Below are positions 2,879 through 8,336 of a stretch of DNA of 11,525 bases, one piece after another (the stretch's first letter is position 1; each line of letters opens with the position of its first letter). The position numbers and the translations under genes are program-made. The notes below the pieces were generated by a model. That model did not search any database. It saw only the letters and a program-made list of their open reading frames with translations, and had not been told where the DNA came from. The DNA is from an uncultured Muribaculaceae bacterium (GTDB taxonomy: Bacteria > Bacillota_I > Bacilli_A > RF39 > UBA660). The stretch is taken from positions 6,942 to 18,466 of the forward strand of contig CAZJTX010000014.1 in assembly GCA_964549115.1 (NCBI GenBank), written 5' to 3'.

Positions 2879-3940
2879 ATGATTGCTAGACTAGAAGAAA
2901 TAGAAAACAAATATAACGAATTAAAACAAGAGTTATTGAAACCCGAAGTTTTAGAAGATTACAATAAAATTAAAGTTTTATCTAAAGAAATAAGTGAATA
3001 TGAAGAAACTGTTAATCTTTTTATACGATATAAAAAGGTTCTTTCTGATTTGAAAAATTCAGAAGATATGTTAAGTGATGTAGATTTAAAAGAAATGGTT
3101 GAAGAAGAAATAAAAAATCTAACTGAGGAAAAAGAAACATTAGAAAATCAATTAGAAGTCTTATTAATACCAAAAGATAAAAATGACGGTAAAAACGTTG
3201 TTATGGAAATAAGAGGCGCCGCTGGAGGAGACGAAGCTAACCTTTTTGCAGGAGACTTGATGAGAATGTATTCTTACTATGCGGAAGAACATGGTTGGAA
3301 AGTAGAAGTATATAACGAACAACCTGGAACAAGTGGTGGATTCTCACAAATAGAATGTATTATAAAAGGCGAAGGAGTATATTCTAAATTAAAATATGAA
3401 AGCGGCTCTCATAGAGTTCAAAGAATACCCGTAACTGAAACCCAAGGCAGAGTTCATACATCAACTGCTACAGTTTTAGTAATGCCAGAAGTTGATGAAG
3501 TTGATATTGAAATAAATGAAAAAGATATTAAAGTAGATGTGTATCATTCATCAGGTGCGGGTGGTCAATCTGTTAATACGACAAACTCAGCTGTAAGAAT
3601 GACTCATTTACCAACAGGAATTGTTGTTACTTGCCAATCAGAAAGAAGCCAAATAAAAAACAGAGACCAAGCTTTGAAAATGTTAAGAGTAAGGGTATAC
3701 GACGAAATAACAAGAAAACAAGAAGAAGAGATCGACAGTACAAGAAAACATAAAATAGGTACAGGAGATAGATCCGAAAAGATAAGAACGTATAATTATC
3801 CACAAAATAGAGTGACGGACCATCGTATTAATTTTTCTATTATGGAATTAGACAAAGTTATGGAAGGAAAGCTAGAACCTATAATAGAAGCTTTAATAAA
3901 TGAAGATATGAAATTAAAATTAGATGGGGAAACTTTATAA
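2879..3940 (+). CDS. prfA: Peptide chain release factor 1
   Basis: 353 aa. It has the GGQ motif (SGAGGQSVNTT), the RF1-specific PxT tripeptide as PVT (RIPVTETQGR), and the conserved DRSEKIRTYNYPQNRVTDHR. Confidence 0.97.
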   Translation: MIARLEEIENKYNELKQELLKPEVLEDYNKIKVLSKEISEYEETVNLFIRYKKVLSDLKNSEDMLSDVDLKEMVEEEIKNLTEEKETLENQLEVLLIPKDKNDGKNVVMEIRGAAGGDEANLFAGDLMRMYSYYAEEHGWKVEVYNEQPGTSGGFSQIECIIKGEGVYSKLKYESGSHRVQRIPVTETQGRVHTSTATVLVMPEVDEVDIEINEKDIKVDVYHSSGAGGQSVNTTNSAVRMTHLPTGIVVTCQSERSQIKNRDQALKMLRVRVYDEITRKQEEEIDSTRKHKIGTGDRSEKIRTYNYPQNRVTDHRINFSIMELDKVMEGKLEPIIEALINEDMKLKLDGETL

Positions 3941-4669
3941 ATGAGTGAAAAAGATTTACTTGAAAAATATATAGAACCAAAAAAGCAAAAAAAAGCATTT
4001 AAACAATTAAATAAAGGTATACCGGTTCAATACATTATTGGAGAAGTAGATTTTTTTTATTGTAACATTAAAGTGAGAAAAGGTGTTTTAATACCGAGAT
4101 TTGAAACAGAAGAACTTGTCGATAAATTAATTAAATTAATTAATGAAAAGTTTGGAAACAAATCTATAAAAATAGCGGACTTAGGAACTGGTTCTGGAGC
4201 AATAGCAATAGCCTTAAAAAAACATGTTCCTAGTGCAACAGTAATAGGATATGATACCTCGTTAAAAGCTCTAAAATTAGCAAGAGAAAACGCTAAATAT
4301 AATAATGTAGATGTAACTTTTAAATATAAAAACATTAAAACGAAAATTAATGAAAAGTTTGATGTAATAGTAAGTAATCCTCCATATGTATCGAAAGAAG
4401 AAATAATTGACGATATAGTAAAAAAAGAACCTATAAAAGCAATATTTGCTAAAGATGACGGGTTAGAATATTATAAGAAAATTTTGAAATATGCACATGA
4501 ATCAACAAAAGAAAAATATATAATTGCGTTTGAAGTAGGATATAAACAAGGAGACTTAATAAAACAAGAAGCATTAAAATGTTTTGAAGAGAAACAAGTG
4601 GAAATTTTGCCTGATTTATCGGGTAAAGATAGGTTTGTTTTTATAATATCTCAAAATAGTAATGAATAA
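3941..4669 (+). CDS. prmC: Release factor glutamine N5-methyltransferase PrmC (HemK), short form with a reduced N-terminal domain
   Basis: NPPY catalytic motif (VSNPPYV), SAM loop DLGTGSGAIAIAL, and the conserved block VQYIIGEVDFFYCNIKVRKGVLIPRFETEELV. It starts on the codon immediately after the prfA TAA. Confidence 0.9.
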   Translation: MSEKDLLEKYIEPKKQKKAFKQLNKGIPVQYIIGEVDFFYCNIKVRKGVLIPRFETEELVDKLIKLINEKFGNKSIKIADLGTGSGAIAIALKKHVPSATVIGYDTSLKALKLARENAKYNNVDVTFKYKNIKTKINEKFDVIVSNPPYVSKEEIIDDIVKKEPIKAIFAKDDGLEYYKKILKYAHESTKEKYIIAFEVGYKQGDLIKQEALKCFEEKQVEILPDLSGKDRFVFIISQNSNE

Positions 4670-4680
4670 TTTATTAGTTA

Positions 4681-4689
4681 TGTTATAAT
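4681..4689 (+). promoter_or_regulatory. Extended -10 promoter element upstream of the 462-aa ORF
   Basis: TGtTATAAT (TATAAT 4684..4689) lies in the 54-nt prmC/ORF spacer, with a second TATAAT at 4702..4707. There is no good -35. A strong SD, GGGAGG at 4712..4717, lies 6 nt before the ATG at 4724. Confidence 0.4.
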
Positions 4690-4723
4690 TAAATTAGAGA
4701 ATATAATCACAGGGAGGTTCGAG

Positions 4724-6112
4724 ATGATTACGTTACTAAAAACATTAGGTGAAAAAGTTTCAAAAAGGGAAATGACTTGGAAAGATGCAACAGAATATTA
4801 CATAATGCAAACAGGCGAGGAAATCTCCAGAGCTGCTCTAAAAAACAGATATTATAAGTTAAATAAAAAACTTAAAGAAGATCCAACTTATATGAGTGAT
4901 GTTATAGCTAAAGAATCTGAAGTTGTTGCTCAGATGACATTTCATAAAGACATAGAAGAATATTATTCGGATGGTTCTCTTTATGCTAAAAAGTTAGTTA
5001 ATCTACCTCCTGAACAAAAAGAAAGCCCAGCAGAAGTCTTAAGGGCTATGAATTATCCGCCCGAAAATTGGGAACTTGAAAAAATAAGATTTACATCGTG
5101 GCAACAACATACAAAATCACAATTAACTAAAAACCTTTTCTCTGTAGAAGTGAGGTTGTTTCCACGTGTAAAAACCATGTCCAAAGAAGAAGCAATGGAA
5201 GTAATACTGGATTATTTTCAAGGAGAGATTAAACCTTTGAAATTACCTGAAGTTACACAGAAATATCAAAATGAAGATTTGATGGTTGAATGTCCAGGTA
5301 TAGAATTGCATTTAGGAAAATTAGCTCATTATATGGATACAGGGGAAAATTATGATCATAAGATAGCTGAAGAAAGATTTGGAAAAATTATGCGTGAAAT
5401 TGTTTCATACCAAGAGGTTTCAAATGCGGCTAATTTAACAATGTTTATAGGAAACGACTTCTTTAATAGTGATACTCCCGATAATACAACAACTGCTGGT
5501 ACACAAATGCAAAATGACCTTAGATATAAGAAGATGTTTTTATTAGGCCTTAAAATGTATACTGAGGCGTTGTATTTATTAAGAGAAAAGTTTTCAAACA
5601 TAAAAATAAAATTACAATCTGGAAATCATGATGAAGCAACAAGTTTTTATTTATATGTTGCGCTGGCACAAGCTTTTCAAAATGATAATATAATAAAGTT
5701 CTCAGATGAATATAAAGCCGTCCAAGTTACAGAATTTGGAAATAGCGCGTTATTTACTGCACACGGTAATTTTAAGGGTAAAAATTATAAAAAACTAATT
5801 CAATCAATCGCATTTGAATTTGCTGAAGTGTGGGGAAGAACCCAACATAGAGAATTACATTTAGGTCATTTACACACCGAATTAGTTGTTGATGAAAACA
5901 GTGGGTTAATAGTTAGAAGAATAGGAAGTCCAAGCGGAACTGATTCATGGCATTATGAAAACAGATATGTAGGAAGCCGAAAAGCTCATCAACTATTTTT
6001 ATGGCATAAAGAAGTGGGTATGATCAATTCTCACTACATAGTATTTCCTCCAGAACTTGAATCGACTAAAGAACGCGCTGAGATGGAAATACCTAAACAA
6101 CGTACTAGATAA
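4724..6112 (+). CDS. Uncharacterised 462-aa protein: helical/basic N-terminal region of about 185 aa plus a calcineurin-like (Mre11/SbcD-type) metallophosphoesterase domain with non-canonical motifs I and II
   Basis: All five metallophosphoesterase motifs occur in order:
- Motif I: IELHLG (E194-x-H196, nt 5303..5311).
- Motif II: GNDFFNSD (aa 243..250, nt 5450..5473).
- Motif III: GNHD (aa 300..303, nt 5621..5632).
- Motif IV: AHG (H347, nt 5762..5764).
- Motif V: GHLH (aa 381..384, nt 5864..5875).
The N-terminus MITLLKTLGEKVSKREMTWKDATEYYIMQTGEEISRAALKNRYYKLNKK looks like a small HTH/Myb-like module. The SD is strong, and the stop lies 8 nt before the murA ATG. Confidence 0.85.
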   Translation: MITLLKTLGEKVSKREMTWKDATEYYIMQTGEEISRAALKNRYYKLNKKLKEDPTYMSDVIAKESEVVAQMTFHKDIEEYYSDGSLYAKKLVNLPPEQKESPAEVLRAMNYPPENWELEKIRFTSWQQHTKSQLTKNLFSVEVRLFPRVKTMSKEEAMEVILDYFQGEIKPLKLPEVTQKYQNEDLMVECPGIELHLGKLAHYMDTGENYDHKIAEERFGKIMREIVSYQEVSNAANLTMFIGNDFFNSDTPDNTTTAGTQMQNDLRYKKMFLLGLKMYTEALYLLREKFSNIKIKLQSGNHDEATSFYLYVALAQAFQNDNIIKFSDEYKAVQVTEFGNSALFTAHGNFKGKNYKKLIQSIAFEFAEVWGRTQHRELHLGHLHTELVVDENSGLIVRRIGSPSGTDSWHYENRYVGSRKAHQLFLWHKEVGMINSHYIVFPPELESTKERAEMEIPKQRTR

Positions 6113-6120
6113 GGAGCTTT

Positions 6121-7368
6121 ATGAAAAGAATTATTATTGAGGGGGGCCATAAATTAACCGGAACAATCAAAATAGGTGGCGCAAAGAATAGTGTTGTTGC
6201 ACTTTTGCCTGCGGCATTACTATCAGATGAAGGAGCATATATTAGAAAAGTTCCTAATATATCAGATAAAGATGCATTAGTACAAATTATGACACTTTTA
6301 GGAGCAGATGTGGAAGTAACTAAAACTACGGTAAAAGTAAATAGTAGTAAAGTAAAAAGTATTGCCATTCCGGAAGAATTAAGTAATAAATTAAGAGCAT
6401 CGTATTATTTTATGGGTGTTCTTTTAGCAAGATATAAAAAAGTTCAAATTCATTTTCCTGGCGGGTGTAAAATAGGCGAAAGACCAATAGATTATCACTT
6501 GAAGGGATTTGAAAAACTTGGAGCAAAAATTAAAAAAGACGATTCTAAATATACTTTAACTGCTAGAAAGTTGGTAGGATGTCCTATTAATTTAGAGTTT
6601 GCTTCGGTTGGGGCAACAATTAACATTATGTTCGCGGCAACAAGAGCTGAAGGAATAACCACAATTAACAACGCCGCAAGAGAAGCGGAAATTATTAATG
6701 TAGCAGATTTTTTAAATAGTATGGGTGCAAAGATTTCAGGACAAGGAACGAGCACAATAACCATTGAAGGAGTTAAATACTTAAAAAAAGGAAGTGCCGC
6801 TGTAATACCTGATAGAATTGAAGCTGGCACTTATGTTGTAGCAGGAGCATTACTAGGTAAAAACTTAAAAATAGAAGGAATAGAAAAAAATCATATTGGT
6901 GCGCTATTAAAGAAGTTGGACGATATGGGCATACCTTATGATTTAAATAAAGATAGTATAACTATTAGTAAAGTAAGAAAAATAAAACCGATAAACGTAA
7001 AAACTTTGGTTTTTCCGGGTTTTCCAACAGATTTAGGTCAACCAATACAAGTGTTATTAACTCAAGCAAGTGGAGCTTCGTTTTTTGAAGAAACAATATA
7101 TGAAAATAGAATGGCTCACATAAAATACTTACAAATGATGAATGCTAATATAGAACATACAAATATGAGAGCAAAAATAGTGGGGCCTACCAAATTAGTA
7201 GGAAGAGAAATAACAGCTCAAGACTTGAGGGGTGGAGCGGCATTAGTATTAGCAGGTTTAATAGCAGAAGGATTAACAATAGTTAATGACGCTGATCATA
7301 TTTTAAGAGGATATGAACGAATAATAGAAAAACTTACAAATGTAGGAGCTAAGATTAAAATAGAGTGA
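6121..7368 (+). CDS. murA: UDP-N-acetylglucosamine 1-carboxyvinyltransferase
   Basis: 415 aa. The N-terminus is IEGGHKLTGTIKIGGAKNSVVALLPAALL, the catalytic Cys loop is PGGCKIGERPIDYHL, and the C-terminal region has DLRGGAALVLAGL and RGYERIIEKL. The SD AAGGAG (6111..6116) overlaps the stop codon of the preceding ORF. Confidence 0.95.
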   Translation: MKRIIIEGGHKLTGTIKIGGAKNSVVALLPAALLSDEGAYIRKVPNISDKDALVQIMTLLGADVEVTKTTVKVNSSKVKSIAIPEELSNKLRASYYFMGVLLARYKKVQIHFPGGCKIGERPIDYHLKGFEKLGAKIKKDDSKYTLTARKLVGCPINLEFASVGATINIMFAATRAEGITTINNAAREAEIINVADFLNSMGAKISGQGTSTITIEGVKYLKKGSAAVIPDRIEAGTYVVAGALLGKNLKIEGIEKNHIGALLKKLDDMGIPYDLNKDSITISKVRKIKPINVKTLVFPGFPTDLGQPIQVLLTQASGASFFEETIYENRMAHIKYLQMMNANIEHTNMRAKIVGPTKLVGREITAQDLRGGAALVLAGLIAEGLTIVNDADHILRGYERIIEKLTNVGAKIKIE

Positions 7369-7375
7369 TTAATTG

Positions 7376-7403
7376 TTGAAACATATACCAAATGTGATAT
7401 AAT
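7376..7403 (+). promoter_or_regulatory. Sigma-A type promoter with extended -10 upstream of rpmE
   Basis: -35 TTGAAA (7376..7381), 16-nt spacer, then TGaTATAAT (TATAAT 7398..7403). The SD is AGGAGG at 7427..7432. Confidence 0.6.
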
Positions 7404-7436
7404 ACAAAAGATTGAAAAGAAGGACTAGGAGGCATA

Positions 7437-7649
7437 ATGAAAAAAGATATACATCCAGAAATAAAAGAATGTAACGTAACATGTGCGTGTGGTGCTACAT
7501 TTACTACAAAATCAACAGTAGATAAAATGAACTTAGAAGTATGTAGTGAATGCCATCCATTTTACACAGGAGTTGCAGGCAAAGTAAGAAAAGCTGGTAA
7601 AATAGAAAAATTTAATATAAAACACGGTTTAAAAAACGAAGATAAATAA
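7437..7649 (+). CDS. rpmE: 50S ribosomal protein L31, Zn-ribbon (type A) form
   Basis: 70 aa: MKKDIHPE...[11 protein letters not shown]...[11 protein letters not shown]...KFNIKHGL. The cysteine pairs CxC and CxxC are typical of type A L31. Confidence 0.95.
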
Positions 7650-7669
7650 ATGTAAAATTTTCGTTTTTT
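7631..7669 (+). terminator. Possible rpmE terminator (weak, large loop)
   Basis: AAAAAACGAA (7631..7640) is the exact reverse complement of TTCGTTTTTT (7660..7669). The loop is 19 nt, the T-run is largely consumed by the stem, and the 5' arm lies inside the rpmE coding sequence. Confidence 0.3.
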
Positions 7670-7670
7670 A

Positions 7671-7699
7671 TTGGAGTTAATTAATAAAATTAGTATAAT
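7671..7699 (+). promoter_or_regulatory. Sigma-A type promoter upstream of rpiB
   Basis: -35 TTGGAG (7671..7676), 17-nt spacer, -10 TATAAT (7694..7699). The SD TAGGAGTG follows and the ATG is at 7718. Confidence 0.55.
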
Positions 7700-7717
7700 T
7701 AAAATAGGAGTGATTAA

Positions 7718-8161
7718 ATGAAAGTATTTGTAGCAGGAGACCACTTAGGCAATACTTTAGAAAAAGAAATTGTTAAATATTTACAAGAAAACGAAATAAA
7801 GGTAGAAGGGTCCAATTTAAAAACATACCCAACTGATGATTATCCTAACTTTGCTAAAGAGGTTTCAGAAAAAGTAGTTGAAAATAATGGTTTAGGAATA
7901 TTAATTTGTGGTAATGGAATTGGGATGAGTATTGCTGCAAACAAATTTAAAGGCATAAGAGCTGCTAGAGTACTAACTGTTGATGATGCTTTTAAGGCTA
8001 AAAACCATAATGGTGCAAACGTTATTACTCTAGACTCAAATACCCCAACAGATATTGTTAAGGGCATAGTAGATGCGTTTATAACAACAAAAACACCTGA
8101 AGAAGAAAGACATTTAAGACGTATCCAGTTAATAAAGGATATAGAAAATAATGAATTATAA
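7718..8161 (+). CDS. rpiB: Ribose-5-phosphate isomerase B (RpiB/LacAB family)
   Basis: 147 aa. It has MKVFVAGDHLG and the family core GILICGNGIGMSIAANKFKGIRAA with the catalytic Cys, followed by ...HNGANVITL. Confidence 0.9.
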   Translation: MKVFVAGDHLGNTLEKEIVKYLQENEIKVEGSNLKTYPTDDYPNFAKEVSEKVVENNGLGILICGNGIGMSIAANKFKGIRAARVLTVDDAFKAKNHNGANVITLDSNTPTDIVKGIVDAFITTKTPEEERHLRRIQLIKDIENNEL

Positions 8162-8336
8162 AATATATTTTTATATTTTCTTCACATTTGTGTCCGCAAT
8201 TGGGTTATCAGGCATAAATGTTAATTCAATAATTAAAAAAAACAAGAAGGTAGAAGCAACAATTTTAATGATGAGTTTAAGTTTTATAATGGGATACATA
8301 TTAACAGAGTTTGTATTTGGTTTTTTTAATAAATAA
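8151..8336 (+). CDS. Small two-TM membrane protein (61 aa), possibly DUF1146/YwzB-like
   Basis: Two hydrophobic segments (IYFYIFFTFVSAIGLSGI and ATILMMSLSFIMGYILTEFVFGFF) are separated by a basic loop (IIKKNKKVE). The ATG lies inside the last codons of rpiB (11-nt overlap), with AAAGGA 11 nt upstream. The family assignment is from memory only. Confidence 0.55.
   Translation: MNYKIYFYIFFTFVSAIGLSGINVNSIIKKNKKVEATILMMSLSFIMGYILTEFVFGFFNK

Follow-up and report, generated by a model that had tools for sequence, protein, structure and literature searches.

The 11,525-nt window analysed here, from an uncultured low-GC member of the Bacilli (contig CAZJTX010000014.1, assembly GCA_964549115.1), raises the question of what a gene for a 462-amino-acid (aa) protein with no evident housekeeping role is doing between prmC (3941..4669) and murA (6121..7368), all three on the plus strand. 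A first-pass annotation made from the sequence letters had described the protein as an orphan with a degenerate metallophosphoesterase (MPE) core of the Mre11/SbcD branch, and had considered it a possible domesticated phage gene. As judged by profile similarity, the gene, referred to below as X (4724..6112, plus strand, recognised as an open reading frame (ORF) and by profile match), is a new chromosomal member of PHROG 704, a large and catalogued phage family. We consider it reasonably probable (approximately 60%) that X encodes a phage-derived enzyme made up of a helix-turn-helix (HTH) module, an alpha/beta domain and an MPE domain, predicted to be dinuclear, that is divergent yet intact, that it was captured once and domesticated, and that its product acts as a DNA-directed phosphodiesterase.

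The PHROG 704 profile, which carries the label "DNA repair exonuclease", matched X with an E-value of 2.7e-67 (228.6 bits), the alignment extending over aa 13-435 of the protein and positions 16-380 of the 390 in the profile. Relatives of X were detected by tblastn in 2,035 of 50,697 phage records (about 4%), mostly T1-like siphophages of Escherichia, Klebsiella and Salmonella, together with phages of Vibrio, Lactobacillus, Flavobacterium and others; the best match in a sequenced phage was to Bacillus phage vB_BhaS-171 (30% identity). A collection of 5.8 billion proteins contained 846 homologues sharing sequence words with X, almost all of them unnamed, and an exhaustive profile search returned 5,673 representative clusters (50% identity) at E <= 1e-3, including 1,964 at E <= 1e-30. 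Foldseek comparison with predicted viral structures (BFVD) produced 48 matches at E <= 0.001, all uncharacterised or generically labelled, and PF27386 was present as a precomputed annotation on three homologues. The family occurs in the majority of T1-like coliphages and of the siphophages of Klebsiella and Salmonella, and its members are routinely labelled "DNA repair exonuclease". The protein is thus no orphan, and the earlier hunch of a link to phage-encoded proteins was borne out. The family in which it was placed is catalogued rather than well characterised with a known role: no experimental characterisation of any PHROG 704 member was found in the literature.

The exact X protein was recovered on at least 26 contigs from many samples, on every one of them in the same origin-proximal gene context (rpmH-rnpA-yidC-jag-mnmE-mnmG-rsmG-parB-...-prfA-prmC-X-murA-rpmE-rpiB-hpf-dut-metG). 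A sister species displayed identical synteny (prfA-prmC-X-murA-rpmE-rpiB-hpf-dut), with X being 58% identical between the two species, compared to 78% for MurA, 80% for PrfA and 65% for PrmC; loci L005 and L038 overlap perfectly and represent one organism. Between-species rates of nonsynonymous (dN) and synonymous (dS) substitution were 0.36 and 1.73 for X (ratio ~0.21), 0.29 and 1.60 for prmC (ratio 0.18), and 0.16 and 1.29 for murA (ratio 0.13). More distant relatives (MurA 65-67% identical) sporulate and have the gene order prmC-spoIIR-mntP-murA, which places X in the spoIIR/mntP slot of a lineage that appears to have lost these genes. In three loci of such relatives (L039-L041), spoIIR, spoIID, spoIIID and mntP are interleaved in the prfA-prmC-murA-rpmE-rpiB block. 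Their absence from the lineage of the window fits a history in which sporulation was lost and the genome was reduced.

After the sister species, the nearest homologue of X was a phage protein (P0003, 57% identity) encoded by a metagenomic phage (loci L001-L004). It belongs to the same ELHLG subfamily, is nearly the same length and can be aligned with X end to end; unlike X, its gene has a RecU resolvase gene and a small NrdD-like ORF on the upstream side and glycosyltransferase genes together with terS, terL and portal on the downstream side. Another homologue, P0010 (50% identity), was found in a temperate phage beside an integrase. In a neighbour-joining tree the two chromosomal copies of X were sisters, P0003 formed the next branch and the whole group was nested among phage clades. 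A linker insertion of ~20 aa (aa 53-75) is common to the two chromosomal copies and is absent from the phage proteins. Taken as sequence evidence, these data fit a single old phage capture followed by domestication, not a decaying remnant. Strains without X were also sought by means of a PrmC variant, and this candidate was rejected: all four contigs (4/4) had an ORF 54 nt past prmC that was >99% identical to X at the nucleotide level.

No integrase or phage gene flanking X was found in the window, and the search for an insertion scar revealed only short, low-identity repeats around X, as expected for DNA of 28% GC. The GC content of X was 32.5% (21.6% at third codon positions), that of the window 28.4%, and the codon-usage deviation of X (0.19) was inside the range of the neighbouring genes; the composition and codon usage of X are host-like, without a compositional break. 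The earlier statement that nothing in the sequence points to a recent insertion therefore stands.

Signals for expression of X, which the first-pass annotation had already picked out, could be read directly from the sequence. A putative extended -10 promoter element (TGTTATAAT) of the TGnTATAAT type is located upstream of X at 4681..4689 (plus strand), and a Shine-Dalgarno (SD) sequence, GGGAGG, at 4712..4717 (plus strand), 6 nt 5' of the X ATG. The -10 element was not listed by a consensus promoter scan because there is no -35 match. Both TGTTATAAT and CAGGGAGGTT, the latter covering the SD region of X and identical in the sister species, are kept in the prmC-X spacer of that species, the remaining spacer having diverged; among nine strains of the species of the window the spacer showed no variation. 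At the other end of the gene, the X stop codon (TAA, 6110-6112) overlaps the murA SD (AAGGAG, 6111-6116) at a distance of 8 nt from the murA ATG, the murA SD and start codon (6121-6123) together spanning 6111..6123 on the plus strand. In the sister species a distance of 3 nt separates the X stop from the murA ATG. A terminator scan of the interval 3800-7800 revealed no terminator-like hairpin. The tight coupling of X to murA proposed earlier is confirmed.

The predicted protein comprises three parts. An AlphaFold2 (AF2) model of full-length X had a mean predicted local distance difference test score (pLDDT) of 83.9. Its N-terminal HTH-type module (aa 1-52; 4724..4879, plus strand), delineated from the model and from homologues, consists of three helices (2-13, 19-30 and 36-52, pLDDT >90) followed by a disordered linker, and contains residues W19 and R42, which are nearly invariant in an alignment of 49 homologues (39-58% identity) used throughout for scoring residue conservation. 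When aligned N-termini of phage homologues were compared with Pfam, those of Klebsiella phage GH-K3 (30.2 bits) and vB_BhaS-171 (27.9 bits) passed the cut-off of 25.7 for Sigma70_r4_2, and those of other homologues gave weak Myb/GcrA matches. By homology, then, the N-terminal HTH of X appears real, in keeping with the first reading of the sequence. A family-specific middle alpha/beta domain (aa 77-170; 4952..5233, plus strand), assigned from the model and from conservation, has a predicted beta-beta-alpha-alpha-beta-beta arrangement with an additional helix (strands 77-80, 86-92, 116-128 and 136-147; helix 154-168). It is conserved across PHROG 704, and Foldseek with the full-length model yielded no convincing PDB fold match for it.

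The MPE catalytic domain (aa 183-441; 5270..6046, plus strand) was delimited using AF2 and Foldseek. When modelled alone, it formed an alternating beta/alpha sandwich with a pLDDT of 82 and a predicted template modelling score (pTM) of 0.85. All five calcineurin-like MPE motifs (D/E-x-H, G-D, G-N-H-[DE], H and G-H-x-H) are present in order and at the residues noted previously. From the alignment, they are motif I, IELHLG (aa 193-198, with E194-x-H196; 5300..5317); motif II, GNDFFNSD (aa 243-250, with D245; 5450..5473), followed by a family-specific NTTTxGTxxxND loop; motif III, GNHD (aa 300-303, with N301 and H302; 5621..5632); motif IV, AHG (aa 346-348, with H347; 5759..5767); and motif V, GHLH (aa 381-384, with H382 and H384; 5864..5875), all on the plus strand. 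The residues invariant in the 49 homologues were E194, L195, H196, G198, G243, D245, F247, G300, N301, H302, H347, G348, H382 and H384, along with T256, T260 and D265 in the loop after motif II; since the ligand residues are invariant, the five motifs are not there by chance. The AF2 loop spanning aa 255-264 was of low pLDDT and is probably flexible. The string ELHLG occurs twice in X, as had been observed before, and corresponds to a 25-nt direct repeat (5299-5323 and 5848-5872).

The core, with its unusual glutamate in motif I, had been called degenerate, a description that did not hold. Motif I reads D-L-H in the T1-like and vB_BhaS-171 homologues and E-L-H throughout the subfamily of X, independent chromosomal clades included. 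With Glu in the whole subfamily and Asp in distant members, E194 is a fixed conservative variant rather than a sign of degeneration. The invariant metal-ligand residues, further conserved Arg, Lys and Thr positions in the alignment and the confident AF2 models of the MPE fold suggest that X is likely to be an active enzyme. The phage proteins gp01 of vB_BhaS-171 (YP_009273325.1) and gp19 of GH-K3 (AYP28200.1), for which "putative phosphoesterase" is an alternative label, resemble X in the combination of HTH, middle and MPE domains, in the same five motifs and in a full-length profile match. They differ from it in being phage-borne, in having only 23-30% identity to it and in having Asp in motif I, whereas X is chromosomal, lies in a core operon and has Glu.

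Indications as to the substrate came from phage gene neighbourhoods. In the Firmicutes-type phages closest to X, the homologue is positioned at the early/late boundary, and the neighbours in close phage relatives include terS/terL, HNH endonuclease and RusA-like genes. A RecU gene is located two genes upstream of the homologue in locus L001 (Pfam match). Of 80 IMG/VR loci, 40 had a RuvC-like gene upstream, mostly at a distance of two genes, and 39 had a primase-like gene on the downstream side; the names of IMG/VR neighbours (RuvC-like, primase-like, RusA-like, HNH, terS/terL) were read from translations. In T1-like phages, a polynucleotide kinase/phosphatase gene comes directly after the homologue, and independent chromosomal relatives adjoin rnhB or a DHH phosphoesterase gene. 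Taken together, the HTH and the phage neighbourhoods suggest that the substrate is nucleic acid, probably in the form of DNA ends or branched DNA, and X would accordingly be grouped with nucleic-acid phosphodiesterases or nucleases.

The following course of events would account for these observations. The data support the capture of one phage copy in an ancestor shared by two or more uncultured low-GC species of Bacilli, at the position where sporulating relatives carry spoIIR-mntP, and its maintenance since then under purifying selection. It would be expressed from its own conserved extended -10 element, probably also by read-through from prfA-prmC, and would be translationally coupled to murA. 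The product is predicted to be a phosphodiesterase that depends on metal ions, most likely a nuclease with DNA ends or branched DNA as its substrate, and the HTH would bring it to nucleic acid. In phages, the homologue presumably has its role during replication, recombination and packaging; in the host, X might now serve DNA maintenance or possibly defence. Capture of this kind was among the options first put forward for the locus, and it became our favoured one on the strength of the sister-species synteny, the neighbour-joining tree, the dN/dS ratios and the conserved promoter and SD. X would then represent a clean evolutionary case of phage-gene domestication, a finding that in itself overturns nothing and opens no long-standing question.

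Several results weigh against this interpretation. The Pfam Metallophos model stayed below threshold on X (14.5 bits compared to a cut-off of 21.5, E 0.049); homologues of X scored 16-17 bits on Pfam Metallophos_2, with its cut-off of 27, and NCBIfam gave nothing significant for X, only a sub-threshold PdeM match. The curated MPE hidden Markov models do not reach a family as divergent as this one. A profile search against all PDB sequences detected no solved relative of X and one spurious match, the fold likeness of X to any solved MPE is weak (template modelling (TM) score of about 0.5 or less), and the N-terminus of X itself had no significant Pfam HTH match. The PHROG 704 label is an annotation with no experimental test behind it, and with no characterised family member found, the substrate and activity of X are purely inferred. 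The position of the homologue also varies between phages (at the early/late boundary, in moron position beside an integrase in locus L006, or beside the polynucleotide kinase in T1-like phages), a pattern that would be equally compatible with an accessory gene and with a core role in DNA processing.

Comparison of strains revealed an unusual distribution of nucleotide diversity (Pi) around X, with nine strain sequences available for the prmC and X segments and five strains for the trough described below. Over the whole of prmC, 60 of 729 sites were segregating (Pi 3.8%), and its 3' end (4341-4633) was more diverse still (45 of 293 sites, Pi 7.6%); none of the 90 sites in 4634-4723 was variable (Pi 0%), and only 7 sites segregated in the first 881 nt of X (Pi 0.36%). 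The trough extends from 4634 to 6212 and takes in the final 36 nt of prmC, the prmC-X spacer, the complete X gene and 92 nt at the start of murA, with three variable sites in five strains; variation in murA resumes 92 nt into the gene. The few within-species changes in X were almost all synonymous, and no X protein variants between 58% and 100% identity were present in the collection of 5.8 billion proteins. The hypervariable 3' part of prmC (4341-4633) directly abuts the invariant stretch beginning at 4634, and nonsynonymous codon differences in prmC outnumber synonymous ones (e.g. 26 versus 17 between the window and L007). Another gene of the window, rsmG (200-1200), had zero variable sites among the compared strains; diversity in the region is patchy and low diversity is not specific to X.

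Extreme purifying selection was rejected as the cause of the monomorphic X, as synonymous sites are invariant too and the between-species dN, dS and their ratio are ordinary; with normal between-species dS, constraint alone cannot explain the trough. A recent gene-specific sweep is possible, as is the import by the flanks of recombinant DNA from lineages without X.

A sweep of this kind is what would be expected under phage pressure, and the contrast in diversity between X and prmC is compatible with X being an anti-phage effector of the superinfection-exclusion or abortive-infection type, i.e. a prophage accessory gene retained for the ability of its product to break down a signalling nucleotide or the nucleic acid of incoming phages. 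The homologue in temperate phage L006 would suit such a role, as it is found in moron position, with tail and probable lysis genes on one side and the integrase on the other, and accessory genes typically differ in position between phage groups, as the homologue does. There is also a precedent for a phage MPE directed against DNA in an arms race, and it is the one characterised phage MPE found in the literature: Gp48 of mycobacteriophage A10ZJ24 has demonstrated phosphodiesterase activity, damages host DNA and silences defence genes, and its activity is abolished by D10G, which puts the motif I Asp at residue 10 (PMC12287305). Gp48 and X are alike in being phage-type MPEs with five motifs, Gp48 having a DNA-directed role, and Gp48 serves here as an analogy, drawn at the superfamily level. 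The MPE domain of Gp48 starts at the N-terminus and that of X follows a 180-aa extension; Gp48 is toxic to its host, whereas X is predicted to be stably expressed from a host operon. An effector role of this type nevertheless appears unlikely on the present evidence. PADLOC-DB v2 returned zero matches at E <= 0.01 for X and two chromosomal long forms of the family, X has no partner gene, defence island or mobile-element neighbour, its inferred co-transcription with murA, an essential cell-wall gene in the vicinity of oriC, and its stable vertical transmission across a dS of >1 do not suit an effector of this type, and the invariance of rsmG in the same window means that the trough is not unique to X.

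The neighbourhood in T1-like phages suggests a different kind of activity. In these phages, as seen in Klebsiella phage GH-K3 (L011), the X homologue is followed directly by genes for a polynucleotide kinase/phosphatase and an NTP hydrolase, and the three are packed closely together (locus positions 5743-7977) just upstream of the lysis cassette, an arrangement that may constitute a nucleic-acid end-repair module; no experimental study of this T1-like three-gene block was found in the literature. The block resembles Pnkp, in which a kinase and an MPE form a healing pair (PMC2190708, PMC3675462). X could by analogy be a phosphoesterase of the end-healing type, with the 2',3'-cyclic phosphodiesterase or 3'-phosphatase activity of enzymes such as lambda phosphatase and the MPE domain of Clostridium thermocellum Pnkp. 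It would then ready broken RNA or DNA ends for ligation and would not itself cut nucleic acid. The presence of phosphomonoesterase- and cyclic-nucleotide-type MPEs, namely purple acid phosphatase and YmdB, among the fold matches of X speaks for it as well. We hold this explanation to be improbable, however, because no kinase or ligase gene adjoins X or its homologue, be it in the window, the sister species or the closest Firmicutes phages, and because the association with polynucleotide kinase is limited to a branch ~25% identical to X. In addition, an N-terminal HTH is, to our knowledge, not a feature of known end-healing enzymes.

The Mre11/SbcD assignment made in the first-pass annotation was likewise examined through the fold. 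With the full-length model, Vps29 proteins were the only credible PDB fold matches in Foldseek (probability 1.0, TM 0.53 on target); Cas12f, the top full-length match, was rejected as an artefact of a multi-domain query (TM 0.13). With the isolated catalytic domain, Thermotoga maritima Mre11 (4o43_A) was the best match (E 5.3e-5, probability 1.0, TM 0.43-0.50, root-mean-square deviation 7.2), followed by purple acid phosphatase and Bacillus subtilis YmdB. Every match at a probability >=0.8 was an MPE protein, with modest TM values of 0.35-0.53, so that the models point clearly to an MPE fold without singling out a branch. A bona fide Mre11/SbcD-type nuclease would be in line with this best match of the isolated domain, with the shared MPE fold and motif order, with the D/E-L-H-L-G form of motif I, which is common in SbcD and Mre11, and with the PHROG 704 label. 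Set against these are the low TM and high deviation to Mre11, the fact that with the full-length model Vps29 was the best MPE match and no Mre11 appeared in the top 50, and the lack of any profile match to a solved Mre11/SbcD. Pfam and NCBIfam detected no SbcD_C or Mre11_DNA_bind capping or DNA-binding domain in X, in place of which it has the N-terminal HTH and middle domain, and neither the window nor the 21-kb loci L007 and L008 contained a Rad50/SbcC partner or an SMC-like gene. Moreover, 11 IMG/VR loci contain a separate protein with MPE motifs (median 717 aa, read as SbcD-like) three to four genes downstream of the X homologue. With no partner, no capping domain, no profile similarity and a weak fold match, the assignment is not established, and we regard it as very improbable; labels such as "Mre11/SbcD" or "DNA polymerase II small subunit" on PHROG 704-type proteins are unsupported.

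Finally, the view of X as a prophage remnant without function, or as a purely regulatory HTH protein whose enzyme domain is dead, would agree with its phage origin and with the non-canonical Glu for Asp in motif I but is scarcely tenable for a gene with an intact ORF in both species and on all of the at least 26 contigs, a dN/dS of about 0.2, metal ligands all invariant across 39-58% identity and a motif I Glu fixed in the whole subfamily, independent chromosomal clades included.

Scanning the species representatives of GTDB for other chromosomal copies yielded 21 loci, with a best match of 41% identity to X, and in several of these the protein was longer (570-690 aa) and encoded among core genes. 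These long forms, designated X', share with X the subfamily signature ELHLGK(L) and GNDFFN[ST]DT..NTTTAGT, matched PHROG 704 with E-values of 1e-30 to 1e-37, and occurred in the contexts rnhB-X'-...-glyS, mnmE-X'-mnmG and X'-DHH-hpf-secA. The rnhB-X'-...-glyS arrangement was found in five metagenome-assembled genomes with the record labels Erysipelotrichaceae, "Tenericutes", Clostridiales or Bacilli. The rnhB-linked X' proteins comprise ~70 cluster representatives of graded identity (46-99%) and uniform length on contigs of up to 512 kb, a pattern expected for vertical inheritance in a bacterial clade. X' and X belong to the same catalytic subfamily and are both embedded among housekeeping genes; they are only 24-29% identical, X' has an extra C-terminal extension of ~110 aa and the rnhB-linked clade is without the TW-type HTH. 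As X' is located at other chromosomal sites than X, separate captures or an old paralogous lineage must be assumed. From the sequence comparisons, recruitment of PHROG 704 by low-GC Bacilli seems to have happened more than once, and the occurrence of independent chromosomal clades, together with a copy under purifying selection in an essential operon, shows that the activity is useful to cells and not to phages alone. One could go further and regard the HTH-MPE family as a distinct, unrecognised class of DNA-targeted phosphodiesterases, recruited several times from phages by reduced-genome low-GC Bacilli into core, partly oriC-proximal operons for lineage-specific chromosome maintenance or immunity, with the near-absent polymorphism of X reflecting a recent function-driven sweep; we put this forward as a speculation that is unlikely to hold.

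A few observations concern other parts of the region. Every other gene in the window had been described as recognisable, which mostly holds, with the exception of two ORFs between parB and prfA (2088-2423, 111 aa; 2435-2845, 136 aa with a very acidic C-terminal tail) for which no Pfam family was found. ORFs of like size (111-112 and 140-151 aa) flank argS in L039 and L041, the likeness being by size only, and the lineage of the window is without argS at this place. A 61-aa hydrophobic ORF (8151-8336) between rpiB and hpf shares sequence with the end of rpiB; related contigs have it annotated as a gene, with a weak DUF1146 match, and in sporulating relatives the same 61-aa gene adjoins spoIID. 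The best sigma-70-like promoter match of the scanned region (7376-7403; TTGAAA, 16-nt spacer, TATAAT and an upstream TG; 11/12) is located just after murA and before the 70-aa rpmE (L31) gene at 7437-7649, which suggests an independent promoter for the downstream genes. Lastly, a 424-aa reverse-transcriptase gene (Pfam RVT_1) was observed outside the window, on its upstream side, directly before rpmH-rnpA at the origin-proximal contig end in three loci (L007:1-361, L008:1-358 and L009:1-235), and could belong to a group II intron or encode a retron-type reverse transcriptase.

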